Origin: an uncultured Actinomycetes bacterium
GTDB lineage: Bacteria > Actinomycetota > Thermoleophilia > Gaiellales > JAICJC01
NCBI GenBank assembly: GCA_963825325.1
Contig: CAWGSU010000003.1
Location: 192,895-256,894 of the forward strand
Reading direction: 5' to 3'
Length of the DNA stretch: 64,000 nt
Both the position numbers and the translations under genes were made by a program. Numbering within the stretch: position 1 is the first letter of the stretch; each line of letters opens with the position of its first letter. The notes below the pieces were generated by a model. The model was not told where the DNA came from. It saw only the letters and a list, made by a program, of their open reading frames with translations, and made no database searches. Shown piece after piece: positions 1,681-32,539 of this stretch.

Positions 1681-1687
1681 TCACACA

Positions 1688-11031: not shown

Positions 11032-11036
11032 TCAGC

Positions 11037-11055: not shown

Positions 11056-11115
11056 CGAGCCGCAGTCCGGTAGCTGGGTCAACTCCAGACTGTCGCCCAG
11101 GCGGGCGGTACCGGT

Positions 11116-11152
11116 GCGGGGCGCCACGGGTTGGGTACCGATGGCGCCCCGC
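11116..11152 (-). terminator. hairpin downstream of the alkaline-phosphatase-family gene
   Basis: 11-bp perfect stem GCGGGGCGCCA / TGGCGCCCCGC with a 15-nt loop, 15 nt beyond the stop at 11167. Confidence 0.45.
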
Positions 11153-11166
11153 GTTGGAGTGGGCCG

Positions 11167-13032: not shown

Positions 13033-13583
13033 CCCTCCCGACGAAGACCCTGCCGCGCCGCATCCTCATTGCTCCACCGCGGCGCAGGGGTGAAAGAACG
13101 GTGAGCAGGCGGTGAGAATTCGGAAAAGCGGGGGCGGACCGCTGCCTGGGCGCCATGGCCGTCGTGTGCCGCTTGCTGGGCGGCGAGGAGGTGGCTGTCG
13201 GCGGCGAGCGGTTGGCTGCCGATGTCCTCGTAGACTCGCGCGGCGTCCGGGTAGTTCGCCTCGGCGGTGAGGAGTAGCGCGTCGCGCCAGCGGCACGCCG
13301 GAGGCAGGAGCAGCGCCGCCTGGCGGATGTCGTCGTGTCGGTCTGTCTGGGCGAGGATGAGGCTGAGCTCACAGAGTTCGGGAGCGTTGCTCGTTTGGCC
13401 ACCAGTCTGGCGCCGACGGGTGAGAAAGCGCGTGTCTTACTCGGCGCTCAGCCGAGCGTCGGGACTCAGTCGGCGGTACTGCAAGCTGAATCGCGACCGA
13501 GTGCGTGCCGCATCCGGTCCACGGGCCCAGGTTCACGTAGTCAGGGCACTCTATTGGTAATGCAGTGGCACGTCGCCGCGCCT

Positions 13584-14666: not shown

Positions 14667-14698
14667 AATAGGTCTCCTCGGTTCAAGCGGTGTGCGGG

Positions 14699-15562: not shown

Positions 15563-15570
15563 GCGGTCTC

Positions 15571-16911: not shown

Positions 16912-16926
16912 CCTCGCAGGCCCACG

Positions 16927-18051
16927 TTAGTGGTGCTCCGGCTTATCCGGAGGATTCGGGTTTGGCCGGGCTACGTACGGGAACGTCTCGGTCGCCGGCC
17001 TAGACGCCGTATCGACCCCATCGCGGATGACAGGACCGTTCCCAGCATTGATCAGCAGCGTGAAAATCGTGTCCATCACGTCATCGTTCAATGCCCGTCC
17101 GCCGCACGTCGAATGAGGCCGGCCGGCGATCAATGCTTGCTCGATCTCAAGGTAGGAACCTTGCGCGGCATACGGCTTGGTCACATCAGTAACGAGGTAG
17201 TCAGCCAAGGCGAGCTCGGTCAGTGGATGCGTATCGTCGTGATATGTCCAGTCCGCCTTGCCATCGAGGCCATCCCAGAAACGCAGATTCGCGTTCAACC
17301 GAGCTCGATAAGCACCGACGTAGCCATCCGCGAGGTGAAAGCCGTCCTCCATGTTGTAGATGTCGCGGATCTCGAGGTCGCGGTTGACCTGGTCGAACTG
17401 CTTCGGCGCGAGCAGCAGGTTCTTCACCTCGGGCCGACCGACGCGCTCGATGCGGACGTTCAACCTGCCGCGCGTTAGCGTCTCCGAGACGTGCCCGACG
17501 AGCTCGACTCCCGGCAGGTACCTTGCGCAGTCGATCTCGAGCACGATGCTCAGCACGTTCTTGCCATCCATGTAGATCGACCCGGGGTCGGTGAACGCGA
17601 TCTTCCCAGTGGCGATCGTTTTCAGCGCGGCCGGGGCGTCCATGATGAACGGATCCCACCGCACCCCGGCGAAGGCCCGAATACCGTGGGCGGTGCCGCC
17701 GTGCTCATCGCCGGCGACAAAGTCAACGGTGTCCCCGCTCGGCGTATGGCACGTGCCCTCCTGCGGCTCGGTGCCCCCCGGGTCGGAGAAAACGACGTCA
17801 AACACCAGCTCAGGGGAGTCGTGGACGTCGTACGGCGACTGGCCGCTCGCGGCCTCGACCACGTGTACCTCACGCAGCCGGAAGCGGTAGATCAGCCCGT
17901 CGGAGAGTCGCGCAGTCGCCGGCGCGAAGGGAAGGGTGTTTTGCACCAGCACCAGATGACCAGGCCGCTCCGGACTAGGGAACGCGTACACATCGGTGAT
18001 GTCCGCGATCGGATCGGCGAGCGCGCGTGGCCCCGAAATGTGATCAGACAT
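16927..18051 (-). CDS. DUF4331 domain protein
   Basis: 374 aa. N-terminal SDHISGPRALADPIADITDVYAFPSP matches the DUF4331 signature. Confidence 0.85.
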   Translation of the reverse strand: MSDHISGPRALADPIADITDVYAFPSPERPGHLVLVQNTLPFAPATARLSDGLIYRFRLREVHVVEAASGQSPYDVHDSPELVFDVVFSDPGGTEPQEGTCHTPSGDTVDFVAGDEHGGTAHGIRAFAGVRWDPFIMDAPAALKTIATGKIAFTDPGSIYMDGKNVLSIVLEIDCARYLPGVELVGHVSETLTRGRLNVRIERVGRPEVKNLLLAPKQFDQVNRDLEIRDIYNMEDGFHLADGYVGAYRARLNANLRFWDGLDGKADWTYHDDTHPLTELALADYLVTDVTKPYAAQGSYLEIEQALIAGRPHSTCGGRALNDDVMDTIFTLLINAGNGPVIRDGVDTASRPATETFPYVARPNPNPPDKPEHH

Positions 18052-18071
18052 ATGCCTTTTCCCTCTGCCGG

Positions 18072-18623
18072 TTAGTCGGCCGCCTCGTCGAGCAGTGGTG
18101 CCAGCACAGGGCTCTGAAGCGCGGCCTCGGCGCCCGGATCGTCCAGCACCTGCTGGAACGCCTCGCTGACGCGTTGGGCCTTGCGAATCTCCTTGACGGT
18201 GCCGCCGTAGTTTCGCGCATAGGCCGCGGCAGTAACCTGCGCGCCCAGCACGAAGTTCTTCACTGCCTGGAGATCGGGAAGCCCACCGTAGCCCTCGACG
18301 TGCTGGAAGACCTCGTCGAACAGCCTAAGCGTCGGGCCCGACGTGAAGAAGTCGTCCATATACGCGTCCCACGGGCCGTCGAAGCTCGTCGCGAACAACA
18401 AGCGGGTGTCATCGTCGAAGAGCACGAACCTGGCCTCGTGGATCGTCGCGACAGCCATATGGTGCTCGCCGGGTCGGTATCCAGGCTCGTCTTGCAGCGA
18501 CCGCAGCGCCGCTCGAATCTGCTTGCCGTGTCCGGGCCTCACAACAAAAAACAGGCTGAACTCGCTGGTCAGACCCGAACTCACACCGGGCCGCGATTCT
18601 CCACCTTCCACTGAACCTGACAT
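18072..18623 (-). CDS. conserved hypothetical protein co-clustered with DUF4331 and DyP
   Basis: ATG at 18623 after RBS GGGGAGGGTGG. Motif ATIHEARFVLFDDDTRLLFATSFDGPWDAYMDDF. The stop lies 20 nt before the DUF4331 start. Confidence 0.7.
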   Translation of the reverse strand: MSGSVEGGESRPGVSSGLTSEFSLFFVVRPGHGKQIRAALRSLQDEPGYRPGEHHMAVATIHEARFVLFDDDTRLLFATSFDGPWDAYMDDFFTSGPTLRLFDEVFQHVEGYGGLPDLQAVKNFVLGAQVTAAAYARNYGGTVKEIRKAQRVSEAFQQVLDDPGAEAALQSPVLAPLLDEAAD

Positions 18624-18893
18624 CCACCCTCCCCAATCGGTTCGGCACAAACGGTCGCGTTCCGCGCTGCGATCTTAGAGGGTTGCCACTAGCCAAGCGC
18701 CGTCCGCGCCGGTGGCACTGTGACGACCCAGACCCGATCGACACCACGGTTGACTCGCAAGAGCTGCTCGCGCGGATCGGGCGGTGCTCGGGCGCGTCTC
18801 CGGCAGCCGCGATCGCGGGGTGATCCGCCGCGGCGAGTTGCGGTGAACCTGCCCTCCTGCTAGGTGACGGGCGGCGGGAATGGGTCGAGGCTG

Positions 18894-19235
18894 TTAGGTC
18901 CTGGCGCTGTGGCCGGGCCTGGCGGCGTGCCTGACTGCTAGCTGGGCTACGAGTTCTTCTCGCTCGTGGCGGAGGGACTGCAGCATTCGCCGAGCGGCGG
19001 TGAGCCGAGTCGCGATCTCTTCAGTCTCGTGCCGGTGGGGTGCGAGAAGCGCGCGCTTGTCCATCGACCGACGGTACACCTCGCTCGAGGCTGATCGTTC
19101 ACCTGGCTCGTCGAACGTGTCGGGTTCACCGCTTGTTTTCTGAATCGTGTCCACCCATTCACTGTCCGGGAAAGGCCCGCCCCTTAGAGTGCCCCTCGGT
19201 AAGGCTCCTGGGAGCAGACGAGGAGGTCCAAGCAT
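18894..19235 (-). CDS. hypothetical small protein (start uncertain)
   Basis: 113-aa ORF. The C-terminal half MDKRALLAPHRHETEEIATRLTAARRMLQSLRHEREELVAQL looks helical or coiled. An alternative ATG is at 19064. It lies in a degraded accessory patch. Confidence 0.3.
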   Translation of the reverse strand: MLGPPRLLPGALPRGTLRGGPFPDSEWVDTIQKTSGEPDTFDEPGERSASSEVYRRSMDKRALLAPHRHETEEIATRLTAARRMLQSLRHEREELVAQLAVRHAARPGHSART

Positions 19236-19476
19236 GGATCGCGGTCATCTTCAGCGAACCGAGGATGCGAAGCGGCGGGCGAATGAGTGGATGTGGGAGG
19301 GCGTGTCCGCGGGTGGCGGCGAGCATTCGGTGCCATTTCTGTGTGAATGCGGAGGTATTGAGTGCCATGCGACGGTGTGGCTCACGCCGCGCGAGTACGT
19401 GGCGTGTCGAGCTGCGGCCGAGGAGGGCTCGGTCGCGGCGCCCGAGCACAGTCGCCGGCTGATGGTGGTCAGTTGA
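19234..19476 (+). CDS. small cysteine-motif protein
   Basis: ATG at 19234 after RBS GAGGAGG. Product MDRGHLQRTEDAKRRANEW...FLCECGGIECHATVWLTPREY, a CxC-x4-C pattern seen in small actinobacterial hypotheticals. Confidence 0.6.
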   Translation: MDRGHLQRTEDAKRRANEWMWEGVSAGGGEHSVPFLCECGGIECHATVWLTPREYVACRAAAEEGSVAAPEHSRRLMVVS

Positions 19477-19800
19477 CGCGCCTGGTTCCACGCAGCGTGC
19501 TCTTGCGGTTAACTGTGAGCGAGTCCGGCGGGGCGGCAGGCCGGCATAGAGAACCGGCTGATCGTAAGGGGCGAGTATACGATGACGCACCGCCGCAGAT
19601 CGTTGTCGTTCGTGCTCGTACGACCGGACGTTCACCAAGCGACGAACGGCATAGATCATGTCACCTGCGGTTCCCTTCATGATCTCGCGGCGCCGCCACG
19701 GGATGCAGAGTTGGCCGCGGACGCGCTGGTGGTGCGCGAGGTGACTTGGTGTGTCGGAGCCGGCTGACGCGGCCCGGGCGCCGCTCGACATGCTGCGCGT

Positions 19801-20400
19801 GTGATGAGCCGGATCCGGAGCCGCCGGGCACGTAGTCGTCGGGTCAACCCGACCAGAGCGCCAGCAGGTAGCCGAAACCGCGCGCACCAGGCTCCCAAGC
19901 CGCCGGCACTGGCTCACAAATGCGGCGACTGCGGACGAGAGATTCTGGCTGGTCAGCGACGCTGCGCGGACTGCCACGCCACCGCGAACACCGCCAGACT
20001 TCGGGAGCACCAAGCCGCCACCACCCTCCGGCGAAGGAATACTGGGGAGCACCCCTCCGCACGCGTCGAGGTCCGAGCGCGCGTCGCCAGCGCGCAACGC
20101 GCCCACGGGGAGGCTCGTCGCGAAGAGAGTGCTTCGGGATTCACCGGTCGGCCATCCGAATTCCGCCGTCTGATCCTCCCGAAACTCCAAGCCGTCACCC
20201 CTTCGCGTCTCGCCCGAGCGACCGGACTCTCCCCCGGCTACGCAGCCCAGATCAGGAACGGTACTCGCACCCCACACCCGCGCCACTGGGCAGCACTCCA
20301 CCTCGCAGGACTGCAGGCCAACGAAGAGGCACCGGGCAGGGGTAGCGCCGGATCACGACCACCTCGCCTGCCACGCGAAGGTCCCCATCCGTCCGGTTAG
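19801..20400 (+). CDS. hypothetical protein with zinc-ribbon and HTH-like regions
   Basis: 199 aa with CGDCGREILAGQRRCADC and FRRLILPKLQAVTPSRLARATGLSPGYAAQIRNGTRTPHPRHW. I recall this motif pair from actinobacterial hypothetical proteins. Confidence 0.55.
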   Translation: MMSRIRSRRARSRRVNPTRAPAGSRNRAHQAPKPPALAHKCGDCGREILAGQRRCADCHATANTARLREHQAATTLRRRNTGEHPSARVEVRARVASAQRAHGEARREESASGFTGRPSEFRRLILPKLQAVTPSRLARATGLSPGYAAQIRNGTRTPHPRHWAALHLAGLQANEEAPGRGSAGSRPPRLPREGPHPSG

Positions 20401-20426
20401 GGAGAGAAGGAATTAGACCGGCCGTC

Positions 20427-21347
20427 TCAGGAAAGGAAGCGGTGGATGGCTTCGTTGGCGTTGTCCTGAAACGACGGGTTGGCCAGATCGGGGAAGATGT
20501 CCGCTTGGTTGACCAGGGGACCCTTGAGCGTGTTGGCCGCGCTGGCGTAGAACTCGCCGCTGGACAGGGTCGGGTCGGTGACGCCGTCGACGAGCCGCTT
20601 CGCTCCCACGTCGAGTTTGTGGGCGAGACCTAGGGCGGGCATGACGTACTTGGCGGCTACCCGCATCGGTAGGGGAAGGTCGTTGGGGGCTTGGGTGCCG
20701 GTGGTGTTGCCGGGGCTCACGGTGATGAATCGGCGGTCGGGGTGTTGGCGGGCCAGGTAGGCCATCCAGAGGGCCCCGATGTACTTGGTCTGGCCGAACG
20801 CGAGGTTGAAGTCAGCTTTTCTGCTGGCGAAGTAGCTGCCGTCGATGACGGTGGCGAGTTCATCGGCTGAGGTTGAGACGAAGGATGGCCCTTTCATCCG
20901 CAACTTCGGAACTCCGCGGACTGCTTCACTTCCGGCGAGGACCGCAACCTCGCCAAGCCGGTCATGGGCCAGGAGCCCTTCGAGGAGGACGACGTGGCCA
21001 AGGACGTTCGTCGCGAACACGGTGGTGACCCCGTCAGCGGTCAAGTCCATCGTCTTCGGGCCAATGACGCCGGCGTTCATGACCAGCGCGTCGAGGGATC
21101 CGTCGATGGCCGCCAGGCCGGCGCGGACGGAACCCAGATCGGCAACGTCCATGAGAACGATGTCGAAGATCTTCCGGCCGGTCTCCGCTTCGAGGTCGGC
21201 CTTCGCCGTTCTCGCCCGCTCTTGGTTCCGGCACGCCAGGTAGATGCGGGCGATCTCGGGACGTGATGCCAGTTGCCGGGCCACCTCCTTGCCGATCCCG
21301 ACGTTGGCGCCCGTGATCAACACGGTCTTTCCTGGGAGTGTGCTCAT
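20427..21347 (-). CDS. short-chain dehydrogenase/reductase (SDR)
   Basis: ATG at 21347 after RBS GAGGGA. Product MSTLPGKTVLITGANVGIGKEVARQL...NAGV. The upstream part of ORF 20427..21650 is R-rich noise. Confidence 0.9.
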   Translation of the reverse strand: MSTLPGKTVLITGANVGIGKEVARQLASRPEIARIYLACRNQERARTAKADLEAETGRKIFDIVLMDVADLGSVRAGLAAIDGSLDALVMNAGVIGPKTMDLTADGVTTVFATNVLGHVVLLEGLLAHDRLGEVAVLAGSEAVRGVPKLRMKGPSFVSTSADELATVIDGSYFASRKADFNLAFGQTKYIGALWMAYLARQHPDRRFITVSPGNTTGTQAPNDLPLPMRVAAKYVMPALGLAHKLDVGAKRLVDGVTDPTLSSGEFYASAANTLKGPLVNQADIFPDLANPSFQDNANEAIHRFLS

Positions 21348-21508
21348 CAGACTTTCCCTCTCATCTTTCTTGGGCCTGGCCCGCACAGCGGCCTTTTGCT
21401 TTCCCGGCCGTTGCAGCCACAAGGCTGTTCTTGACTGGAATGATTGATCCACTATGCCAAATATCATATGGTATGTCAAAGCCATTTTCAGCGGTATACT
21501 TTCCGCGG
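21348..21508. promoter_or_regulatory. divergent SDR/TetR intergenic region with an AT-rich imperfect palindrome
   Basis: Local AT-rich patch CCAAATATCATATGGTATGTCAAAGCCATTTTCAGCGGTATACT, including TATCATATGGTA (10/12 palindromic), between divergent starts at 21347 and 21509. Confidence 0.4.
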
Positions 21509-22147
21509 ATGTCCTCAAGCAGCTCTGGTCGGCCGCGGTTGACGCGCAAGGGCGCCGCCACGCGCGCGCGGATCGTCGACGCCGCGGCAGAGCTGATCTT
21601 TCAGCAGGGCGTTGCCCACACGACGATCGAGGAAGTGCGCGACGGCGCACACGTGAGCAGCTCGCAGCTCTACCACTACTTCGAGGACAAGCCGGCGCTC
21701 GTCCGGGCAGTCATCGAGCGCCAGGCCGACACGATGATCGCCACGCAGGAGCGGTTTGACCTCAGCAGCCTCGACGGCCTGCGGGAGTGGCGCGATTTCG
21801 TTGTCGATCACGCCCGCACCATGGGCGGCCGCTTCGGTTGCCCGATCGGCTCTCTCGGTGCCGCGCTGGCCGAGACGGAGCCCGAAGGTAGGGCAGTGGT
21901 TGCGGCGTCCTTCAAACGCTGGGAGGCCAGCATCATGGCTGGTTTTCTGCGGATGCACGCGCTTGGCCGACTCGAGCCGGAGGCCGACCCGCGCCAGCTC
22001 GCGCTGGCCACGCTTGCCGCACTTGAGGGCGGCCTCTTGCTCGCTCAGATCCAGCGCGACTCCGAACCGCTCGCGGCCGCGCTCGACGCGATGCTCACGC
22101 TCATCGCCACCCTCAGGAGCACCACGAGCACGTCGCTCAACCGCTGA
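21509..22147 (+). CDS. TetR-family transcriptional regulator
   Basis: ATG at 21509. Product MSSSSSGRPRLTRKGAATRARIVDAAAELIFQQGVAHTTIEEVRDGAHVSSSQLYHYF, a TetR HTH. Confidence 0.9.
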   Translation: MSSSSSGRPRLTRKGAATRARIVDAAAELIFQQGVAHTTIEEVRDGAHVSSSQLYHYFEDKPALVRAVIERQADTMIATQERFDLSSLDGLREWRDFVVDHARTMGGRFGCPIGSLGAALAETEPEGRAVVAASFKRWEASIMAGFLRMHALGRLEPEADPRQLALATLAALEGGLLLAQIQRDSEPLAAALDAMLTLIATLRSTTSTSLNR

Positions 22148-22279
22148 GCGGCACCGATGCCCTAGGGGAAGCCGTCGCTGAGCGCGTGGTGCGAGATCCT
22201 CTGTGTAATGGATTACTTACGCCATTTCTGTTACAGTCTGCCCTGGAATAATGGATTGTGTTTTCCAACTGTGAAGGGG

Positions 22280-22920
22280 ATGTCGACAATGGATCTGCAG
22301 GACAAACGGGTTTGATCACCGGTGGCACGTCCGGGATGGGGATTGCCACCGCGCAGGCGCAGTTCATCGCCGCGGATTTCTCGGAGTTCTCCGAGGTGGG
22401 GCGTGTCGCCGAGGCGGCAGGCGAAATCGATGTCCTTCTCAACCTTGCCGGCGTTGCCGTCATGGGAGCGACGACTGACACCGACGAGACGGCGTTCGAC
22501 GGTCTGTTCCAGATCAACGTCAAGGCGCCGTTCTTCCTCGTTGCCGCGCTCGCCCCGAAGATCGCTGCCCGCGGTGGCGGGTCGATCATCAACGTCTCAA
22601 CGATGGTCGCGAGCTACGGCCAGCCAGGCTTGGCTGCCTACGGAGCCTCGCGCGTGGCGATCGAGCTGCTGACAAAGGCGTGGGCCGCCGAATACGGGCC
22701 GCAGAACGTCCGGGTTAACGCGGTCGCTCCCGGTCCGACGTTGACCCCGACACTGGAGCCGCGGTTGGCGATGGCCCAGGAGTTTGCCAAGCAGATTCCA
22801 CTCGGCCGGGTCGCTGACGTGCGCGAGCTGTCTGACGTCATCACGTTCCTCGCGACCCCGGCGGCCGGCGACATCACCGGCGCGATCATCCACGTCGACG
22901 GCGGCCGCACCGCGGTCTGA
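22280..22920 (+). pseudogene. SDR-family gene with a 5' frameshift and an internal deletion of the cofactor-binding region
   Basis: RBS AAGGGGA plus ATG 22280/22289 encodes (MST)MDLQDKRV then a stop. The SDR body TGLITGGTSGMG... continues in the +1 frame from about 22306 (GACAAACGG). GIATAQAQFIAADFSE lacks the roughly 35 aa normally between the glycine motif and the D-x-S/T strand. Length 632 = 3n-1. Confidence 0.6.
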
Positions 22921-22976
22921 GAGAGACGCGATGGTCCTGGTCACCACTCCCCGCGAGCGGACTTCCCAGGGGCGGA

Positions 22977-23174
22977 TTAGAGGATCTTGAAGAGCATCTT
23001 GACGCCCGTGCGGAGGTTCCGTTGGCGAGCCAGAACCGCGACCGTGATTAGCCCTCCCAAGACGATGGGCACGAAAGAGCGTGCTTCGTCTTTGAGCGCA
23101 TCGAGGTCTGTCGCCAGCGCTTGCCGCTCAGCCGCGATCTCCAACCGGATCTCCTCGACCGGGCGCTCAGGCAT
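22977..23174 (-). CDS. small membrane-anchored protein (DUF3618-like)
   Basis: 65 aa with helical N-terminus EEIRLEIAAERQALATDLDALKDEA and a C-terminal TM segment. It overlaps the upstream gene stop by 8 nt. Confidence 0.6.
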   Translation of the reverse strand: MPERPVEEIRLEIAAERQALATDLDALKDEARSFVPIVLGGLITVAVLARQRNLRTGVKMLFKIL

Positions 23175-23535
23175 GGTCCTGAAGCGTCTTCACGGTTCGC
23201 TGCGCCTCGTCGGCGACGGCCCACGGCACCGTGGCCTTCTTCGCGAAACGCTTCGCCAGTAGTCCTGCGATCGCAGCCACCAAGAGCACTCCGCCCGCAA
23301 CGATCAGCAACGAGAGCCACACCGAGAAGGTGGTGCTCAGCGCCGCTGCCGCGGCGCCGAGGGCGAACAGCACCGCGTAGGCGATGAGCACGACCGCCGC
23401 CAGTCCGAGCGCGCCGGCGACTCCGACCGCGCCGGCTTTCCGCTTCGCCTCGAGCTGAGCAAGCTCGACGTTGAGTTGGGCTAACGACCTCAGCCGAGTC
23501 TGCACCCGCCTCGCTTGGGAGACGATCCCGAACAT
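23167..23535 (-). CDS. phage-holin-family / Holin-X-like membrane protein
   Basis: ATG at 23535. Product MFGIVSQARRVQTRLRSLAQLNVELAQLEAKRK followed by two TM segments. An earlier GTG is possible. Confidence 0.65.
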   Translation of the reverse strand: MFGIVSQARRVQTRLRSLAQLNVELAQLEAKRKAGAVGVAGALGLAAVVLIAYAVLFALGAAAAALSTTFSVWLSLLIVAGGVLLVAAIAGLLAKRFAKKATVPWAVADEAQRTVKTLQDHA

Positions 23536-23653
23536 CTCGGCAGCGAGCGTAGCAGGCTGGCCGACGCTCAGCCGTTTCGGGCAGCGCCCGTCCCGAACCT
23601 GACGTTCGGTACCATTGACGGCTCTGCGGTTGACGAGAACTGAGGAGGCAGTC

Positions 23654-23971
23654 ATGAAGACGTTGCTCGCTGTGCTTGTCGGGGTGCTTGCGGCGATCGG
23701 TGCCGCCGTCGTCGCTCTCGTGTTCTTGCGGAAGAAGCCGGACTCGTGGGGCCCGGCGGTGAGTTCCGCTCGAGACACGGCCACCTCGTGGGGGAAGTCC
23801 GCGGCCGACGGGGCGAGCCAGGCCGCCGACAAGGTTGCGGCCACCGCTGCTGATGCCACCGATGCGGCGAGCAAAGCCGCCGACAAGGTTGCGGCCACCG
23901 CCGAGGGTGCGACCGATGCGGCATCCACAGTCGCCGATCAGGCGAAGAGCATGGTGCGCAAGGGCACCTGA
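23654..23971 (+). CDS. membrane-anchored alanine-rich repeat protein (YtxH-like)
   Basis: RBS GAGGAGG plus ATG 23654. Product has an MKTLLAVLVGVLAAIGAAVVALVFL anchor, then two 18-aa repeats AADKVAATA(A/E)(D/G)ATDAAS. Confidence 0.7.
   Translation: MKTLLAVLVGVLAAIGAAVVALVFLRKKPDSWGPAVSSARDTATSWGKSAADGASQAADKVAATAADATDAASKAADKVAATAEGATDAASTVADQAKSMVRKGT
23822..23901 (+). repeat. in-frame 54-bp tandem duplication inside the YtxH-like gene
   Basis: GCCGCCGACAAGGTTGCGGCCACCGC occurs at 23822-23847 and again at 23876-23901. Confidence 0.7.
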
Positions 23972-24070
23972 CCGAGTCGGTCTGCACGGGCGCCGTGGCG
24001 GCCTGCGTGGAAAACGATAGGGACCTGCTGCCGTTACCCTCAGCCTGCTCGACAGCCAGACAATCCGGTC

Positions 24071-24162
24071 GTGCGGCGTTTCGCCCTCTCTATCTACTCT
24101 CCCGGGAGCCATTTGACGGGTTATAGGGATTGCAGGAAGTCGGACACGGGGGGCATCCCGAC
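24071..24162 (+). repeat. mosaic repeat copy 4: arm B(rc) - core - arm C
   Basis: Core at 24101-24120. The left arm GTGCGGCGTTTCGCCCTCTCTATCTACTCT is a 30/30 reverse complement of 27676-27705. The right arm is TTATAGGGATTGCAGGAA plus hairpin GTCGG..CCGAC. Confidence 0.9.
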
Positions 24163-24314
24163 GTGGCGACGCGGCTAGGGTACGCCTCCGGTTCCACGCC
24201 GTCGAGGGCGGCGGCGACGACGATGGCGTCGCCCGCTTCCACCCGATCGGCAGCCCGCCACGTTCCGAGCAGCCGCTCGGGATCCCCGCCCGCAGGGCCA
24301 GCGGGTTAGCGACC

Positions 24315-25520
24315 TCAGTCGTGCGGCGGCGATTGTTCGACGGCGTCCTCGCGTCGGGGGAGGCGGACGCTGATATCGAGGCCACCCGTGGGCATGGCGG
24401 TTGCTTCTACCGTGCCGCCGTGTACCGCGGCGATTGATGAGACGAGGGTGAGACCGAGTCCGAAGCCGTCGTGGCGAGTGCGGTCATCGAGGCGGGTGAA
24501 CGGCAGGAACAGCCGGTCGACTTGATCGGGTGGTACGAGCGGGCCGGTGTTGGCGACTCGCACCACGGACGCGCCGTTGTCGGTTCCGGTCGAAATCGTG
24601 ACAGTGCCGCCCGCGATGTTGTAGCGCTCGGCGTTCGAGAGGAGGTTGGCGACGAGCCGTTCGAGCAGGACTCCGTCGCCGGTCACGGGAGCTTCATGGA
24701 GTGCAGTGGTCGTCGTGATCCCGTTTGCGGTACGTCCCTCGAGTGCGTCTTCGGAAACCGCGGCGAGATCCAGCGGTTCGGTGAGGGTACGCGCCTGGTC
24801 GTTGCGTGCGAGTACCAGCAGTGCCTCGATGAGCCGCTCGGAGTGACCGACCGCCTGGCGGACCTCGGCGGCCATCGACACCAGTTCGTCGCGCGCTGGC
24901 TCGGGCTTGGCGAGGACGACGTCGATGGCCGTGCGCATCACGGTCAGTGGCGTTCGGAGCTCGTGGCTCGCGTTGGCGATGAACTGCCGCTGGCTGGTGA
25001 AGGCGCGGTCGAGGCGTTCGAGCATCGTGTCGAAGGTGTCGGCGAGCTCACGCAGCTCGTCGCGCGGTCCCTCGAGAGCGATGCGCTGGGACAGATCTTG
25101 CTCGCTTGCCGCGCGAGCAGCTGCTGTCAGCTGGTGGACCGGGCGAAGGATGCGTCCGGCCACGATCCAGCCCACAACCACGGCGAGCGCGATGACTCCG
25201 GTCAGGGTGAGGAGCGAGTACGTCAGGAGGTGGGTGAGCGTCGTGCTGCGCTGAGCGGCGGCGCCGGCCCGGACACCGTTCGCGTACACGTCGCCGCACT
25301 TCTGCAGAACGCTGGAGCTGACACCACCACGGTGCGACGCGGCTTGCAGGCACCTCTCAAGCGCTGGTCGGATCGCGGTCGGGATCGTCGTCGGAGTCGC
25401 CCGGTTCAAAGTGTGCGCGACCAGCAGGTAGGTGATCAGTACCAGCGCGGCGCCGCCCACCGCGAACAGCGACGTATAGACCAGCGTCAGTCGCGACCGG
25501 GCGCTGAGCGGGCGACTCAC
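24315..25520 (-). CDS. sensor histidine kinase
   Basis: 401 aa with two N-terminal TM segments, H-box FIANASHELRTPLTV, and ATPase boxes NLLSNAERYN and GFGLGLTLV. Confidence 0.9.
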   Translation of the reverse strand: MSRPLSARSRLTLVYTSLFAVGGAALVLITYLLVAHTLNRATPTTIPTAIRPALERCLQAASHRGGVSSSVLQKCGDVYANGVRAGAAAQRSTTLTHLLTYSLLTLTGVIALAVVVGWIVAGRILRPVHQLTAAARAASEQDLSQRIALEGPRDELRELADTFDTMLERLDRAFTSQRQFIANASHELRTPLTVMRTAIDVVLAKPEPARDELVSMAAEVRQAVGHSERLIEALLVLARNDQARTLTEPLDLAAVSEDALEGRTANGITTTTALHEAPVTGDGVLLERLVANLLSNAERYNIAGGTVTISTGTDNGASVVRVANTGPLVPPDQVDRLFLPFTRLDDRTRHDGFGLGLTLVSSIAAVHGGTVEATAMPTGGLDISVRLPRREDAVEQSPPHD

Positions 25521-26182
25521 AGCCGGTAGCCGACACCGACGACGGTCTCGATCAGCGGCGGCTCCCCGAGCTTCCGCCGCAAACGTGCAATCGTGACGGC
25601 GACCGTATTGCTAAATGGATCGGCGTTCTCGTCCCACACGTGTTCCAGTAGATGCTCGGCGCTGACCGGTGCGCCGTCCGCGTCGGCCAGACACTCCAGC
25701 ACGCCGAACTCCTTGCGGGTCAGGGTCAGCGGGATGCCGGCGCGGCTGGCACGGTGCCGCGCACGATCGACCACCAAGTCGCCTCTGTGCACGACCGCGG
25801 GTGAGCCGGGCCCGCGGCGCCCAAGCGCGCGGATCCGCGCGATCAACTCGTGGAAGGCGAATGGCTTGCCGAGGTAGTCGTCTGCGCCCAACTCCAATCC
25901 GTCGACCCGATCCTCGACGTCTGCGGCAGCAGTCAGCATCAGGATGCGGCTCGACAAGCCGTCGCGCACTAGACGCCGGCAGACCTGGTCGCCGTGGACG
26001 GACGGCAGGTCGCGGTCGAGCACAACCACGTCGTATTCCGTAGCCGTGGTTCTCTGCAGCGCTGCCGAGCCGTCGTAGACCACATCGACGGCGAATCCGG
26101 CGTCGCGCAGACCCTCGCCGATTCGGTTGGCCAGCGCGACGTGATCCTCCACAACGAGCACGCGCACATCCACATTCTGCAC
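25517..26182 (-). CDS. OmpR-family response regulator
   Basis: 221 aa with receiver motifs VLVVEDH and VVVLDRDLP and a winged-helix C-terminus LTRKEFGVLECLA...VGVGYRL. There is a 4-nt overlap with the kinase gene. Confidence 0.9.
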   Translation of the reverse strand: MQNVDVRVLVVEDHVALANRIGEGLRDAGFAVDVVYDGSAALQRTTATEYDVVVLDRDLPSVHGDQVCRRLVRDGLSSRILMLTAAADVEDRVDGLELGADDYLGKPFAFHELIARIRALGRRGPGSPAVVHRGDLVVDRARHRASRAGIPLTLTRKEFGVLECLADADGAPVSAEHLLEHVWDENADPFSNTVAVTIARLRRKLGEPPLIETVVGVGYRL

Positions 26183-26287
26183 TGACCCAGGTGACAGCCG
26201 CCTAACAATCGCTGTTCGGCTCCTGTCATCGTCTGGGTGCTAAACCGGACAGGCAACGCCCCGCGATGTCCATGAACGGAGCAGCCG

Positions 26288-27601
26288 ATGAATGTCAGAG
26301 CAGCGAGTTGCAACGCACGCCGATCACAGGGCGCGGAACGCGACATCCGCTTAGTGTGGGTGGAAGCGGCGCTCGCCATTGCCGCGTTGGCTGCGCTGTG
26401 CGCCGCGGTCCTGTCGGTGCCGCCTCAGGCCGCAGAGCCCGATGACGGCGCCTATCACGCATCGATCGTGGCCACAACCGAAGGGCACTTCCTGACCTTG
26501 TCGACCGCTCAGGCGGAAACCCTGGCGGGGAAGCTACGAGACAACCCGGCCGCGCCCCCGAACCAGTGGGTTGAGGTGACCAGTGGGCGGTGGATCAGCG
26601 AGAAAGACCCCGGTTACCCGTTTGTTGCGGCGCCGTTCCAGAAGTTGGGCCTTGTTCGGTTGGCGCCGCTGTTCTATGGGGCGCTGGCGTGCCTCGGGTT
26701 GTTCTTCGGCGCCCGGCGCTGGCTAGGGCGCTTCGGCGGGCCTGCAGCCGTAGGCCTGTACTGCTCCTCCGGAGCGGCGCTCGCGTTCGCCTGGCGCGAC
26801 TACATGCCGACCTTCACCGATGCATCGCTAATCGCGGCGGGTTCGGGCGCCCTGCTGTGGGCGGTGCTGGCGACCGAGGCCAGCTCTCGGCGGCGCACCT
26901 GGGTCGGCCTCGCCGGATTCCTGGCGATCGAGATCGCAACATTCGTCCGCTACACCAACATCGTGATCCTCGGCTGCGCAGTCGTGGCCGTCATCGTGGC
27001 GTGGCGGCTGCAGTCCACGAGACTGCCCCTCCGCGCGCTGTGCTGGTGGCTTGCCTCGGTGGCCGCCTTCGGCGCCGGCGTGGCCATCTTCAACGACCAG
27101 GTCTACGGCGGCCCGCTGACAAGCGGGTACCCGCCCGGAGAGGTCACGTTCAGCGCCAGCGCGATCGTGCCGAATCTGCGGATCATGCCCGCGCATCTCA
27201 TGCAGGCCATGCCGATGCTGGTGTTGGGACTGATCTCACTGGCCTGGATCATCGTGCGGTGGCTAGTGCTGCGCCGCGTCGGCGGAGAAGTCGGCGCCAC
27301 GGCTCGTCGCGATCTCTGCGTCGCCCTCCCCCTCGCAGCGTCATGGTTCGCGATCTGGGGTCTGTACTCGGCGTACACCTGGACAACCGATCCGACCAGC
27401 GTCACAGTGCAGGTCGTCAGGTTCTACCTCCCGGCGATCGGTGCGATCGCGCTGCTCGGTGCCTGGCTCGTGACCAGGATTCCCGGCCGCCCACGGCGCG
27501 TCGGCCTAACCTCAACCGCCGTCATCGCTGTGCTGTTCGGCCTCGGCGTCTGGGCGTTTCACGCCATGTACGCAGCGTTTGGCGTCCCACTGGGCGGCTA
27601 G
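26288..27601 (+). CDS. polytopic membrane protein, GT-C / family-39-like glycosyltransferase
   Basis: 437 aa with about 10 TM segments. The N-terminal loop SEKDPGYPFVAAPFQKLG resembles ArnT/PMT-type enzymes. The start is uncertain. Confidence 0.6.
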   Translation: MNVRAASCNARRSQGAERDIRLVWVEAALAIAALAALCAAVLSVPPQAAEPDDGAYHASIVATTEGHFLTLSTAQAETLAGKLRDNPAAPPNQWVEVTSGRWISEKDPGYPFVAAPFQKLGLVRLAPLFYGALACLGLFFGARRWLGRFGGPAAVGLYCSSGAALAFAWRDYMPTFTDASLIAAGSGALLWAVLATEASSRRRTWVGLAGFLAIEIATFVRYTNIVILGCAVVAVIVAWRLQSTRLPLRALCWWLASVAAFGAGVAIFNDQVYGGPLTSGYPPGEVTFSASAIVPNLRIMPAHLMQAMPMLVLGLISLAWIIVRWLVLRRVGGEVGATARRDLCVALPLAASWFAIWGLYSAYTWTTDPTSVTVQVVRFYLPAIGAIALLGAWLVTRIPGRPRRVGLTSTAVIAVLFGLGVWAFHAMYAAFGVPLGG

Positions 27602-27614
27602 GCAAGCCGGAGCT

Positions 27615-27705
27615 GCGTTACGGTCCACACCTCTTCCAAGCCTCCCAACAGCCTTCCCGGGAGCCATTTGACGGGAGAGTAGATAGAGAGGGCGAAACGC
27701 CGCAC
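27615..27705 (+). repeat. mosaic repeat copy 5: arm A - core - arm B
   Basis: Core at 27656-27675. The left arm is GCGTTACGG...CCTCCCAACAGCCTT. The right arm is AGAGTAGATAGAGAGGGCGAAACGCCGCAC. Confidence 0.9.
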
Positions 27706-27766
27706 GTCTCGCGGGGCGCGGGTTACACGTACGGCGAGTGATCGACGAGGCCGAGCCCGTCGGGCA

Positions 27767-28873
27767 CTAGCCGCAGAAGTCGGCGATGACGCATTCGAGG
27801 GCGCCCACGCAGCGGTCGAGCTGATCGAGGTCGACCCACTCCACCGCTGCGTGGGCGCCCTCGCCGCCGGGCCCGAAGATGACGGTGGGAATGCCGGCAG
27901 CGGAGAAGATGGCGCTGTCGGCCCAGCCGATACCGCCGGTCACGGGCGCCTCCTGGCCGAGCGCTCGGCGAGCAGCCGCCACGATCGGAGCGTCCGCGGC
28001 AACCTCGAACGGCTCGCGCACGAGCGTGGTGTGCAGCGTGGCGTCGGCGTCGCCAAGCAGGGCGGTCAGCTCCGCTTCGACGATCTCGATCGTCTCGCCG
28101 GGGAGAGTGCGCCGCTCGAGTTGGAGGCGGCACGACTCGGGATAGGTCGAGAGCTCGCGGCCGCCGTCGATGATGGACGCGTGGATCGAGCCCGGGCCGA
28201 GCAGCGGATGGCCCGAGCGCCCGATCAGCTCGGCCGCGAAGCGGTCGAGCTCGACCAGGACCGGGCCCATGCGAGCAATGGCATCGACGCCGTCCTCGGG
28301 CCGCGACCCGTGCGCGGCTCGGCCGCGGACGACGATCTCGTGCCAGGTGAAGCCCTTGTGCGCGATCGCGACGGTTATCTCGGCGCCGGTGGGCTCGGTG
28401 ACGATCGCGGCGTCGGCCCGCACCGACTCGGCGACGGCCTGGGCGCCGACCGAGGCGAACTCCTCGTCGCAGACGGCGGCAACGATGACGTCGCCCGCAA
28501 CGCCCCGCTCGGCGGCGTTGGCGGCAGCCACCATGATGGCGGCCAGGCCGGCCTTCATGTCGTACGCGCCGCGGCCGTAGAGGCGGTTTCCCTTGACCCG
28601 CGGCGAGAAGGGGTCGGCCATTCCGTCGACGCCAACGACATCCATGTGAGCGTACAGGAGCAGCGGGCGGCCGCCGCCCTTCCCCCGCGTCCGGGCGACG
28701 ACGTTGGGCCGGCCAGGCTCGACGTCGGCAATGTCGACATCGAGGCCGCGCTCGGACAGCCAGCCGCCGACGAACCGGGCGATCTCGCCTTCCCCCGCGC
28801 CGCCCGGGACGAGGCTGGGGTTGATCGAGTCGATGGCGACGAGGTCGGCCAGTAGCGCCCGGGCATCCTCCAC
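27767..28873 (-). CDS. M20-family metallopeptidase (ArgE/DapE/acetylornithine deacetylase-like)
   Basis: 368 aa with LLLYAHMDVVGV, CDEEFASVG, and a dimerisation-domain insertion. Confidence 0.9.
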   Translation of the reverse strand: MEDARALLADLVAIDSINPSLVPGGAGEGEIARFVGGWLSERGLDVDIADVEPGRPNVVARTRGKGGGRPLLLYAHMDVVGVDGMADPFSPRVKGNRLYGRGAYDMKAGLAAIMVAAANAAERGVAGDVIVAAVCDEEFASVGAQAVAESVRADAAIVTEPTGAEITVAIAHKGFTWHEIVVRGRAAHGSRPEDGVDAIARMGPVLVELDRFAAELIGRSGHPLLGPGSIHASIIDGGRELSTYPESCRLQLERRTLPGETIEIVEAELTALLGDADATLHTTLVREPFEVAADAPIVAAARRALGQEAPVTGGIGWADSAIFSAAGIPTVIFGPGGEGAHAAVEWVDLDQLDRCVGALECVIADFCG

Positions 28874-29206
28874 GCGGTCACCCTACCAACTGGGCTTCGG
28901 CCGCGGAATGAGCGAAACGCACACAACCGAGGCGAGGATTGGAGTCAAACACCATCCGGTCCACCGTGCGACAGGCGTGACGGGGGTGTGACGTCTAGCC
29001 CGCGTTCGCGGCGGCGAGACACCATACGGGGGCAGACTGACGCCGCACCCCGCACGGATGGGATATCCACCCCGCGCCGCCCGCTCTGCAGGCAGGCCGA
29101 AACCGCCGGTAGGCGGCTTCCGCTTGCCGCTCGGTCAGTGAGGCGACGTGATCGGCACAAGCTCTCAGAATGATGGGCGGGGTGCCCGAGGGTTCGTGCG
29201 TGGCGC

Positions 29207-29253
29207 AGTGCGGCGTTTCGCCCTCTCTATCTACTCTCCCGGGAGCCATTTGA
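29207..29253 (+). repeat. mosaic repeat copy 6: arm B(rc) - core (first 17 nt only)
   Basis: GTGCGGCGTTTCGCCCTCTCTATCTACTCT plus CCCGGGAGCCATTTGAC, then unique sequence TCCGTCCGACCC leading into the lexA promoter. Confidence 0.9.
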
Positions 29254-29284
29254 CTCCGTCCGACCCACCTGGCACACTGTGACC

Positions 29285-29298
29285 CGAACACATGTTCG
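29285..29298. promoter_or_regulatory. LexA operator (SOS box)
   Basis: CGAACACATGTTCG is a perfect palindrome matching the Gram-positive/actinobacterial CGAAC-N4-GTTCG consensus, 18 nt upstream of the lexA ATG. Confidence 0.8.
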
Positions 29299-29315
29299 AC
29301 CCCAGGAGGGTGGCG

Positions 29316-29951
29316 ATGGATCTGTCCCAGCGGCAGAAGGAGATTCTCGAGTTCGTGAACACCCACGTCGATGCCCACGGGTATCCACCGACGGTGCGTG
29401 AGATCGGCCAGGCGGTCGGGCTCACCTCGCCGTCAACGGTGCACGCGCACCTCGCGAAGCTTGAGGCGGCGGGCCTGATCCGGCGCGACGCCACCAAGCC
29501 ACGCGCGCTCGAGGTGATCGAGGGCGGCCGTTCCCGGCGCGGCCCTGCGCCCGCACCTGTCCCCGCCGCCCCCGTCGGCGCGACCGTCCTGCCGCTCATC
29601 GGCCAGGTCGCCGCCGGCTCTCCGGTCGTCGCCGAGGATCAGATCGAGGAGTACCTGCCGCTGCCCGACCAGTTCTGCGGCAACGCCGACTACGTGCTCG
29701 CCGTGCGTGGCGACAGCATGATCAACGCTGGCATCCTCGACGGCGACTACGTCGTCGTGCGCAAGCAATCCGAGGCCAGGAACGGCGAGATCGTCGTCGC
29801 CCTCGTCGGCGACGAGGACGCGACGGTGAAGCGCTTCTTCCGCGAGAACGGGCGCGTGCGCCTGCAGCCGGAGAACGATGCGCTCGAGCCGATGTACCCC
29901 GACCAGGTGGCCATCCTGGGCAGCGTCCAGGCGGTGTTCCGCAGGCTATGA
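29316..29951 (+). CDS. lexA: LexA repressor
   Basis: RBS AGGAGGG plus ATG 29316. Product MDLSQRQKEILEFV...GYPPTVREIGQAVGLTSPSTVHAHLAKLE. Cleavage and peptidase region VRGDSMINAGI...VKRF. The earlier ATG at 29292 lies inside the SOS box. Confidence 0.95.
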   Translation: MDLSQRQKEILEFVNTHVDAHGYPPTVREIGQAVGLTSPSTVHAHLAKLEAAGLIRRDATKPRALEVIEGGRSRRGPAPAPVPAAPVGATVLPLIGQVAAGSPVVAEDQIEEYLPLPDQFCGNADYVLAVRGDSMINAGILDGDYVVVRKQSEARNGEIVVALVGDEDATVKRFFRENGRVRLQPENDALEPMYPDQVAILGSVQAVFRRL

Positions 29952-31342: not shown

Positions 31343-31349
31343 ACTCATA

Positions 31350-31698
31350 TCGCCGATCGGACAGTCGCGACGCCCTCGGGCGCCGAGGAAAGTCGGGACA
31401 CCGCAGGGCAAGGGTGCCGGGTAACGCCCGGACGGGGAAACCCGATGGAAAGCGCAACAGAGAGCAGACCGCCGACCGGCGTCCCTCGCGGACGTCGCGG
31501 CAAGGGTGAAACGGTGGTGCAAGAGACCACCAGCGCCCGCGGAGACGCGGGCGGCTAGGCAAGCCCCACCCGGTGCAACGCCAAACGGAGCGATGACGCG
31601 GCCCGCCGAGCTCCAGGTAGGCGGCACGAGCCGGCCGGCAACGGCAGGCGTAGATGGATGACTGTCCCCGACAGAATCCCGCTTAGAGATCGGCTAAA
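31350..31698 (+). ncRNA. rnpB: RNase P RNA, bacterial type A
   Basis: Universal blocks GAGGAAAGTC, AGGGTGCCGGGTAACGCCCGG, GCAACAGAGAGCAGACCGCC, AAGGGTGAAACGGTGGTGCAAGAGACCACC and TAGATGGATGACTGTCCCCGACAGAATCCCGCTTA. P1 pairing GCCGATC/GATCGGC. Confidence 0.95.
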
Positions 31699-31699
31699 G

Positions 31700-31727
31700 G
31701 AAAGCCCTGCAAATGCGGGGCTTTCCC
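31700..31727 (+). terminator. hairpin immediately after rnpB
   Basis: GGAAAGCCCTGC-AAAT-GCGGGGCTTTCC gives a 12-bp stem with one G-U pair. There is no U-tract. Confidence 0.45.
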
Positions 31728-31822
31728 ATTCAAGGAGTGGGGCTGGCGCCGACCGTCACGGCCGTGTCGGCGCGGAAGCCTGGCGAACTTGTTCGTAACG
31801 AACGTGTTCGTTAGCATGCAGT

Positions 31823-32539
31823 ATGGACGCGCCGCCGCCGACCCGCCCCTTGAGCCGTCGCGAGCGGCCGGCGAAGCCCGCGCTGACGCGCGGGGGCATC
31901 GTTGACGCGGCGTTGCGGCTGATGGAGAGCGAGGGCCTGGGGCGCGTGACAATGCGCCGGCTCGCGGAGGAGCTCGATACGGGGCCCGCGTCGCTGTATG
32001 TGTACGTGCGTGACGCCGCCGAGCTGCACGGCGCGATCCTGGACCGACTGCTGGGTGAGGCCGTCCGTCCGGCGAGAGCGCGGAGCTGGGCGACGAGGAT
32101 CGAGCGGACGCTGCTCGCCTATGGCGCGATCCTGTTTGCGCATCCCGGTCTTGCGCGTTCGATGTTCGCTCGCAGACCGAGCGGCCCTCACTACCTCGAC
32201 CTCGTCGAGAGCCTGCTTGCCGACATGGCTGCCGGCGGAGTTGCGCCGGAGCGCGCTGCCTGGGGCGTCGACGTTCTCCTGCAGCTGATCTCGGCAACCG
32301 CGGCGGAGCAGGTGACTCGAAACGACTCGCTGGAGGCTCCGGCCGAGGAGCAACGCGAGCGCGACGCCCTCCAGGCGGCGCCGGAGCGCTTCCCTCACGT
32401 TCACGCCGTGGCCGACGAGCTCGTGTCCGGGAGCGGCCGGGAACGCCTGAGCTGGGCGATCCAGGCGCTCCTGGCCGGCATCGCCGCCACTCCGCGGGCC
32501 GGCTCGTCGAGCAGCAGCACGAGTCCAGGACGAGCGTGA
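31823..32539 (+). CDS. TetR-family transcriptional regulator
   Basis: 238 aa with HTH IVDAALRLMESEGLGRVTMRRLAEELDTGPASLYVYV. Confidence 0.9.
   Translation: MDAPPPTRPLSRRERPAKPALTRGGIVDAALRLMESEGLGRVTMRRLAEELDTGPASLYVYVRDAAELHGAILDRLLGEAVRPARARSWATRIERTLLAYGAILFAHPGLARSMFARRPSGPHYLDLVESLLADMAAGGVAPERAAWGVDVLLQLISATAAEQVTRNDSLEAPAEEQRERDALQAAPERFPHVHAVADELVSGSGRERLSWAIQALLAGIAATPRAGSSSSSTSPGRA

Follow-up and report, generated by a model that had tools for sequence, protein, structure and literature searches.

A cassette array abutting the lexA promoter of an uncultured Gaiellales bacterium, bounded by inverted arms and a repeated 14-nt core

Results

The M20 cassette and its ends

Upstream of lexA, in a 64,000-nt stretch of DNA from an uncultured Gaiellales bacterium (hereafter the window; GenBank assembly GCA_963825325.1, contig CAWGSU010000003.1, positions 192,895 to 256,894), we found an M20 peptidase gene in a segment that is very likely a mobile cassette seated in an insertion hot spot, whatever the underlying chemistry. 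The cassette (27673-29240) is probably the most recent unit of an array of at least four cassettes (7098-29240), and relatives were found to carry empty or otherwise occupied versions of the same site, as well as the same M20 unit at other loci. Under the reading that we favor, with a probability of roughly 0.5, non-autonomous cassettes of casposon-like anatomy were inserted with duplication of a 14-bp target by an enzyme encoded in trans. The analysis drew on 64 kb from the source genome and no more than 21 kb from any one relative; the loci of the relatives are cited by L numbers. Judged by the homologues of M20 and LexA, the window belongs to Gaiellales-like Thermoleophilia.

The M20 segment is enclosed by an inverted repeat (27672-27705 and 29208-29241) that is complementary at 34 of 34 positions, and by a direct repeat, TCCCGGGAGCCATTTGAC (27655-27672 and 29237-29254), that is identical at 18 of 18. 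The initial annotation of this DNA was right that both pairs are real and that the inverted ends are perfect, but its lengths (30/30 for the inverted ends; flanking core repeats of 20 nt at the left and 17 nt at the right) needed correction. Arm B, the 33-nt cassette end, has three exact copies in the window where shuffled sequence gave an expectation of 0, the third (24071-24103) being additional to the two M20 cassette ends. For the 18-nt core, five copies were counted (four exact, one with two mismatches) against 0.03 expected from shuffles, and chance is excluded as the source of either repeat. The left boundary of the cassette consists of core copy 4 (27659-27672, + strand), which is its left direct repeat, and arm B (27673-27705, +). 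The right boundary consists of arm b (29208-29240, +), the exact reverse complement of 27673-27705, and core copy 5 (29241-29254, +), whose TTGAC (29250-29254) serves the lexA promoter as its -35 element.

As had been proposed, the M20 peptidase gene (27767-28873, minus strand) is the sole convincing gene between the repeats, and Pfam scans of the open reading frames (ORFs) of the segment gave no mobilizing enzyme. The gene is intact and encodes a 368-aa protein with matches to Pfam Peptidase_M20 (1.4e-34) and M20_dimer, that is, an M20/ArgE-type metallopeptidase; 334 bp of DNA upstream and 61 bp downstream are included in the segment. A look-up for an exact match to this protein returned no record. 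A conserved M20 unit (27710-29016, minus strand) comprises the gene, a 143-bp promoter region and a remnant, about 55 bp long, of a truncated convergent neighbor gene (27710-27766). Between this unit and arm b lies a 191-bp non-coding spacer (29017-29207), which had no blastn match in L013 or L014; by eye, short stretches of it resemble the 373-bp and 30-bp spacers of L033 and L034, respectively. The 3' part of the M20 coding sequence also holds a 33-nt, near-contiguous inverted repeat (27796-27828 and 27831-27863; 88% complementary), which is kept in the orthologue of L013 (11005-11035 and 11054-11084).

An array of four cassettes shares one core

The 14-nt core GGGAGCCATTTGAC occurs in five identical copies, all on the + strand, at 7084, 8802, 24104, 27659, and 29241, with cassettes of 1.7, 15.3, 3.5, and 1.6 kb between them. 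To the left of each copy stands a sequence that ends in CCC (CCT at the second site, S2), and to the right one that starts with GGG, except at the last copy, where the lexA leader follows. Writing K for the core, U for the lexA leader, e for an arm-less flank and lower case for the reverse complement of an arm, the sites read a-star/K/D (S1), c/K/A (S2), b/K/C (S3), a/K/B (S4), and b/K/U (S5), an order by which 7098-29240 resolves into four units, D..c, A..b, C..a, and B..b. The arms, 31-45 nt in length, fall into a few families (A, B, C, D) that occur in both orientations. These families are mosaic, in that D has A-like tips on either side of a B-like middle; conserved blocks of the A family are GGGAAGGCTGTTGGG and, further on, GAGGTGC, three variable nucleotides, and CCGTAACGC. 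Unlike ends are common (A with b, C with a, D with c, A with c), so identical inverted ends are not obligatory; the M20 cassette is the unit that carries one and the same arm variant at both ends.

At the left of the array, an a-type arm (a-star; 7039-7083, +) lies 3' of a Metallophos gene and is 75% complementary to an A-type arm at 10586. It is followed by core copy 1 (7084-7097, +) and by arm D (7098-7141, +), with the tips GGGAAGG and CCGTGACGC and the middle GTAGATA, which opens cassette 1 (D..c, 7098-8801, 1.7 kb). This cassette contains an alpha/beta-hydrolase and nucleotide-cyclase gene (7444-8634, +) and closes with arm c (8771-8801, +), 93% complementary to 24119-24148. Core copy 2 (8802-8815, +) and arm A (8816-8859, +; 76% complementary to 27615-27659) introduce cassette 2 (A..b, 8816-24103, 15.3 kb), with about 12 metabolic genes on both strands. 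Within it are an orphan A-type arm (10586-10629, +), with no TTGAC core on its left, and a B-like remnant (10686-10698). Because of these internal relics, long units such as cassette 2 were probably formed by the fusion of older cassettes. Cassette 2 ends in arm b (24071-24103, +), an exact reverse complement of B, followed by core copy 3 (24104-24117, +) and arm C (24118-24149, +); the b/K/C junction was also found in L018 and L034. Cassette 3 (C..a, 24118-27658, 3.5 kb) encodes a histidine kinase, a response regulator and a 437-aa protein without a Pfam match, and closes with arm a (27615-27658, +), which is 91% identical to the arm before lexA in L015.

The cargo of the array is ordinary, consisting of hydrolases, oxidoreductases, a sulfatase-like protein, a two-component system and a holin-like protein. 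The G+C content of the array region is 65-68% vs. 70-77% to the right of lexA. The same ranges apply to window positions 1-29000 and 30000-64000, respectively, with the step at the lexA boundary. Since the low-G+C stretch reaches the start of the window, left of the site at 7084, the island may exceed the four recognizable cassettes. Rfam and tRNA scans gave nothing at the sites, RNase P RNA being the sole match in the window.

The same site in relatives

In 12 of 12 relatives with a comparable lexA region (11 compared by blastn, L035 added by inspection), homology to the window sets in at the last core, from its TTGAC (29250) onward; to the left of this point, relatives match in the arms only. 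In all, 25 sites with 16 distinct cores were collected from 19 loci. Without exception, the core was 14 nt long with TTGAC at positions 10-14; it mostly had CC before the TTGAC, and its first seven positions varied freely between genomes. On its left the core was flanked by ...CCC, on its right by GGG... or by the lexA leader.

Immediately before lexA, the layout a/K/U was found in L015 (LexA 97% identical), L020, L023, L026, and L032, and c/K/U in L019, L021, and L028; the site of L035 bears a c/d hybrid arm, and L025 and L029-31 have e/K/U, with a pyrimidine-rich flank in place of an arm. An empty site had been predicted, and L015 provides one: arm a, the 14-nt core and the lexA upstream sequence are joined without the M20 segment. 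Further empty-site layouts are those of L020, L023, L026, and L032 and the arm-less ones of L025 and L029-31. The opposite outcome, an M20 gene at this position, was observed in none of the relatives.

Ten contigs encode an identical LexA protein, yet they carry different arms on the identical core TCGGTCGCCTTGAC, with a in L020 and L023, c in L028, and none in L025. Because different arms share this core, the first nine nucleotides (N9) belong to the recipient target and not to the cassette. Many short-read contigs end exactly at arms (L016, L020-L028), and together with the differing arms of the identical-LexA contigs this indicates that the locus is polymorphic within populations. Such breaks could also be taken to mean that strain variants with different islands before lexA were falsely joined through shared repeats during assembly, and they do make the locus hard to assemble. 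We consider this explanation scarcely credible, since to assemble internal junctions such as a/K/B, b/K/C, and c/K/A, reads or k-mers need bridge a core of no more than 14-18 nt, and junctions of the same kind were found independently in L034 and, in two other genomes (L018, L019), on contigs of megabase size.

Internal junctions were also found in relatives. L018 reads b'/K/C..291 bp..c/K/U, L017 reads e/K/C (13 nt)..38 bp..c/K/U, and L019 reads b/K/A..2.2 kb..c/K/U with two identical 14-nt cores. Within a genome, cores were identical in the window (5/5) and in L019 (2/2), and the same b arm was found on five different cores in five genomes. Between genomes, arms are 80-95% conserved while the adjoining 9 nt vary freely, which argues for selection on the arms.

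This conservation bears on the view that there is no dedicated machinery, the arms being dispersed repetitive extragenic palindromic (REP)-like intergenic repeats, the region upstream of lexA a hot spot of general or illegitimate recombination, and the inverted M20 ends a by-product. Consistent with it, only three or four arm families recur across genomes, decayed orphan arms are present, and arm b plus core forms a 47-nt exact direct repeat (24071-24117 and 29208-29254) that would suffice for homologous deletion. Some gene blocks common to islands also lack arms at their edges. One of them, a short-chain dehydrogenase and TetR regulator block at window 20436-22149, is 86% identical to L032 700-2398, which indicates that cargo is also swapped or kept without involvement of the arm sites. 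We nevertheless regard this view as unlikely. The 25 sites are nucleotide-precise, always arm, 14 nt, arm, and 14-18 nt of core identity is too short for RecA-type exchange between differently armed sites. In the window the arms are confined to the island (7-29.3 kb), with none in the other 42 kb, and no fully palindromic stand-alone copy was seen. The concern that the ends might be common stand-alone repeats unrelated to gene boundaries was likewise not borne out, as no arm was found away from a cassette boundary.

When genome and metagenome collections were scanned for the core pattern, just 12 singleton matches came back, most of them coincidental within coding sequence. Exact copies of CCGGGAGCCATTTGACGGG were noted in L008 (4712-4730) and L004 (3696-3714), metagenomic or metagenome-assembled genome (MAG) loci of which one is a Solirubrobacterales MAG; the flanks are weakly A-like and, in L008, partly palindromic. 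L008 and L004 may be distant members of the site family outside Gaiellales. The one insertion sequence (IS) seen in an island is IS481-like and about 1.06 kb long; it precedes the empty lexA site by about 160 bp in L030 (1101-2156) and is also present in L029 (963-2018, with an in-frame stop in the transposase). It has 31-nt imperfect terminal repeats and CTAG flanks, and it was rejected as a source of the cassettes on the grounds that its ends are unrelated to the cassette arms.

The M20 unit at other loci

The M20 unit (window 29016-27710) was found in four other genomes. In L013 (93% identity) the order is tRNA, M20, 50 bp, arm b and the core GCGCCCGTTTTGAC, followed by the promoter of an alpha/beta-hydrolase gene. 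In L033 (97%) the flank e, the core ATGCGATCCTTGAC and arm B are followed by 373 bp, M20, and purB. In L034 (94%) M20 is followed by 30 bp, arm b, the core CGGGCCGGTTTGAC, arm C, and an HNH-nuclease gene, and the native convergent gene is kept on the other side, while in L014 (88.5%) the M20 unit lacks any arms. The suggestion that the same cassette might be found at other core sites was therefore borne out at three loci with three other cores (L013, L033, L034); counting the window, a B-type arm stands beside M20 in four of five genomes, at four loci with four different cores. L014 and L034 look like the original chromosomal context and the source of the short cassette.

Relative to the core, M20 is in forward orientation in two genomes and in reverse in two, L013 and L033 being opposite to the window and L034 with respect to the b/core junction. 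Both orientations are expected when a symmetric-ended element inserts. The same observation, with perfect inverted repeats around 1.5 kb, could point to an invertible segment in which the 34-bp repeats form a switch that flips M20 relative to lexA. This is very improbable: no invertase turned up, flipping would change little given that the M20 promoter region is part of the segment, and the direct core repeats, the four other sites, the empty sites and the unlike-ended cassettes are left unexplained. A history by inversion only was rejected as well, as it predicts mixed core orientations, of which none was observed.

Two side observations concern these loci. L013, the closest M20-bearing relative, has unrelated, perfectly palindromic intergenic repeats, GGTGAATAACGGTGCCAGGCACCGTTATTCACC (6290-6322 and 9632-9664, with variants at 3135-3179 and 6580-6624), one copy of which adjoins the tRNA gene upstream of M20. 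In L034, the first gene of the arm-C cassette next to the M20 cassette (682-1794, minus strand) encodes a 370-aa protein with a C-terminal HNH_4 nuclease domain and an N-terminal part of 230 aa that has no assignment. It is the only nuclease seen in any cassette; as a candidate mobility enzyme it was set aside, since it looks like defense-type cargo instead.

The lexA side of the site

The lexA gene (29316-29951) is preceded by the conserved leader U (29255-29315, +). Its promoter consists of a -35 element (TTGACT, 29250-29255), a 17-nt spacer and a -10-like element (CACACT, 29273-29278), and an SOS box, CGAACACATGTTCG, lies at 29285-29298. In the eight relatives' loci that are long enough, right-hand homology ends at one common point, near 31730, after a shared block of lexA, an 80-aa gene, a solute-binding protein gene and RNase P RNA. 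Because homology stops both at 29250 and near 31730, the conserved lexA-rnpB block has variable DNA on both sides; neither an arm nor a core was seen at the right-hand end.

The common end (31702-31735; L016-L020, L029) falls just past the RNase P RNA gene (31349-31701) and a terminator-like hairpin. Beyond it, two adjacent 12-bp palindromes, CGAACTTGTTCG (31784-31795) and CGAACGTGTTCG (31799-31810), precede a TetR-family gene (31823-32539) and a major facilitator superfamily (MFS) transporter gene. They are composed of the SOS-box half-sites CGAAC and GTTCG with a spacer of 2 nt instead of 4, and may represent a TetR operator or a variant LexA site.

Discussion

A model of serial insertion

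We propose that the array has a single 14-bp target, N9 followed by TTGAC, that overlaps the lexA promoter at its -35 box. An enzyme encoded elsewhere in the genome would cut this target with a 14-nt stagger and integrate a linear or excised cassette, and repair would yield a duplication of the 14-bp target with each insertion. Such duplication would leave one core between neighboring cassettes and regenerate the lexA -35 box. The interchangeable 31-45-bp ends, inverted as 5'-GGG... and ...CCC-3', would play the part of transposon terminal inverted repeats. Target duplication predicts the observed occurrence of the same arm on different cores between genomes and of identical cores within a genome. 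In this model the history of the array would be four serial insertions at the lexA-proximal core, giving a-star/K/D..c/K/A..b/K/C..a/K/B..b/K/U, with the M20 cassette taken as recent because it is lexA-proximal and its two ends are identical (34/34). The initial annotation had listed a non-autonomous transposon with a 17-20-bp target duplication among its options; this option fits best, with the functional repeat refined to 14 nt (N9TTGAC).

Several observations weigh against this model. No transposase, integrase, recombinase, Cas1, or family B DNA polymerase (PolB) was detected by Pfam among all plausible ORFs of 0-37 kb, nor was a mobility enzyme present in the precomputed annotations of the relatives' flanks, and since no recombinase or transposase was found, we can only infer the mechanism. 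A 14-bp duplication is unusual for bacterial transposases. No complete cassette, with both ends and both duplications, was found to recur elsewhere; L013, L033, and L034 preserve, or have on the contig, only one cassette end. The cores flanking one cassette in L018 are non-identical (CGGCGCTCCTTGAC vs. GCCCGCTCCTTGAC), and those of L017 differ even more, a mismatch that is more easily produced by crossover inside the core than by duplication, unless the copies diverged later. Finally, the order of cassette arrival is itself a reconstruction from position and end identity. No autonomous partner element with matching terminal repeats and a transposase was seen in the window or at the relatives' loci, no site was found in searches for the arms in IMG/VR viral contigs and PLSDB plasmids, and literature searches returned no description of this cassette system.

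The L017 and L018 cores lead to the principal alternative, conservative site-specific recombination, in which cassettes would excise as single-site circles and re-integrate by crossover within the 14-nt core. The enzyme would be a host or distantly encoded tyrosine recombinase and the array an accretion of integrase-less, att-flanked elements, as in cis-mobilizable elements (CIMEs), tycheposon arrays, or integron and pdif cassettes. The short direct core repeats found at every junction in one orientation do resemble attL and attR, and the cores of L018 share only the right-hand 11 nt, as a crossover in CGCTCCTTGAC would produce. Cores that are the same within genomes and different between them fit a requirement for overlap identity, the invariant TTGAC could be the overlap region, and the b/core/B junction of an M20 circle would form a perfect dyad (-46 kcal/mol, z = -15.9), as expected of a pair of recombinase half-sites. 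We nonetheless hold this alternative to be doubtful, though clearly better placed than the passive-repeat view. The inverted arms are 14 non-symmetric bp apart, whereas the core of a tyrosine recombinase site measures 6-8 bp and the crossover of a serine recombinase takes place at 2 bp. Near the core, the arm families have little sequence in common, and N9 tracks the recipient site and not the cassette arm. Heterologous-core exchange would be needed, because the same cassette (93-97%) sits on four different cores. The cassette also occurs in both orientations relative to the asymmetric core, most cassettes would yield non-palindromic circular sites, and no integrase was present in 12 of 12 lexA-linked islands examined.

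More specific candidates were also discarded. A scheme of palindromic sites (a/A, b/B, c/C) with reciprocal shuffling formally fits S2-S4 but was dropped, as 0 of 25 sites are palindromic and unlike ends are common. A large serine integrase would make the array junctions P-P'-type sites, which such integrases do not recombine. Insertion of the IS200/IS605 type, 3' of a pentanucleotide (the invariant TTGAC), disagrees with N9 being duplicated and following the target, and a miniature inverted-repeat transposable element (MITE)-type unit of arm, core and arm disagrees with the core existing without arms at empty sites (L025, L029-31). No likeness to dif/Xer sites was found by eye.

Comparison with known systems

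Casposons have variable terminal inverted repeats of 25-602 nt and, overlapped by these repeats, a duplication of 14-15 bp in which the terminal positions are conserved and the middle is variable; tandem copies are separated only by the shared duplication, and insertion is strongly site-specific, the target consisting of the duplicated segment and conserved adjacent sequence (PMC4046053, PMC4779613, PMC5137440). The M20 cassette, with a 34-bp inverted repeat and a 14-nt core (18-nt identity) on either side, and the L019 cassette, between identical 14-nt cores, are similar to this arrangement, as is the site-specific tandem insertion of four cassettes with single cores between them and the use of the same point in 12 relatives. 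Unlike casposons, neither the ORFs of the array nor the 37 kb scanned encode Cas1 or a family B DNA polymerase, so that filing the system as a casposon fails although the insertion anatomy is shared. Further differences are that the cargo here is metabolic, regulatory and defense-type, that the two ends of a cassette may be different variants, and that the target is a promoter -35 region, whereas casposons use a tRNA or elongation factor 2 (EF-2) gene.

With integrons, the array shares an ordered, one-orientation arrangement of promoter-proximal, enzyme-less cassettes at a single chromosomal site, as well as cassette ends that would form a hairpin if circularized; the link to SOS is here one of position, at the lexA promoter. 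Unlike in integrons, the halves of the would-be hairpin are at opposite ends of the integrated cassette, 1.5-19 kb apart. The integrated junctions S1-S4 show no excess of folding over shuffled sequence (z = -1.15, -0.90, +1.13, and +0.57), and only the hypothetical circular M20 junction folds. The boundaries read ...CCC, N9TTGAC, GGG... in the 25 sites, without RYYYAAC/GTTRRRY boxes; the cassettes reach 15 kb and have their own promoters and genes on both strands. No intI, attI, or Pc was identified, and no integrase domain was found by Pfam in the ORFs of 0-37 kb or in the annotated lexA flanks of relatives. To our knowledge, integrons have been reported absent from Actinobacteria.

The pdif sites are 28 bp long (11-6-11, XerC-6 bp-XerD), and those flanking a module are mutually inverted. 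Here, by contrast, the cores are 14 nt, asymmetric and all direct (window 5/5; L017, L018, L019), the arms are 31-45 nt long, and there is no dif consensus. The likeness to the XerCD-dependent pdif/xrs cassettes of Acinetobacter plasmids lies in small recombinase-less gene modules with inverted short bounding sites that are shared between replicons (10.1101/2022.12.17.520857). Given that the junctions, once integrated, form no hairpins and that every core points the same way, the analogy with integron and pdif cassettes that was drawn initially fails as a statement of class membership.

Like mobile insertion cassettes (MICs) and MITEs, the M20 cassette has a passenger gene, terminal inverted repeats and a flanking target duplication but no transposase inside, and duplications of 15-17 or 27-28 bp are known from the IS1202 family, the transposases of which are of the DDE type. 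In contrast to these groups, no autonomous IS with matching ends was found, and the target specificity and tandem arrays would be unusual for such elements. CIMEs are integrase-less, att-flanked cargo that accumulates in tandem at one attachment site and forms a variable island; their sites are usually in the 3' ends of tRNA or other genes, and some array normally has an integrase-bearing element. The att-like direct repeats at every junction are comparable, but here the cores are 14 nt long and lie between long inverted arms, and the 12 islands hold no integrase. No tyrosine or serine integrase occurs within the 2-10 kb upstream of lexA in L017, L018, L019, L029, L032, L035, and the window, a distance over which the arrays were not followed to their far end.

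Implications

It is conceivable, although we offer this only tentatively, that the sites belong to an undescribed cassette-capture system of Gaiellales-type actinobacteria, a functional analogue of integrons. Its enzyme-less cargo of 0.1-15 kb would be integrated in trans with a 14-nt stagger by a relative of Cas1-solo or casposase proteins or by a new enzyme, in ordered, leader-proximal arrays directly ahead of a promoter -35 box (N9TTGAC), the principal one being at the lexA promoter. Were the enzyme a Cas1 relative, the cassettes would be non-autonomous, cargo-carrying derivatives of casposons in bacteria, with a bearing on the origins of clustered regularly interspaced short palindromic repeats (CRISPR) arrays. 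We know of no such derivatives in bacteria, and a literature search on casposons and non-autonomous elements gave none.

If confirmed, these findings would add to Actinobacteriota a cassette-array system with a different site architecture, that of split inverted ends around a duplicated 14-bp target. The signature ...CCC, N9TTGAC, GGG... is a simple handle for more cassettes and, through them, for the enzyme. Taken as a whole, the system would account for a hypervariable island at a fixed chromosomal point in widespread, barely cultured soil bacteria. Every insertion into a target that overlaps the lexA -35 box would replace the DNA upstream of the lexA promoter, and insertion at this promoter could couple the content of the island to SOS regulation.

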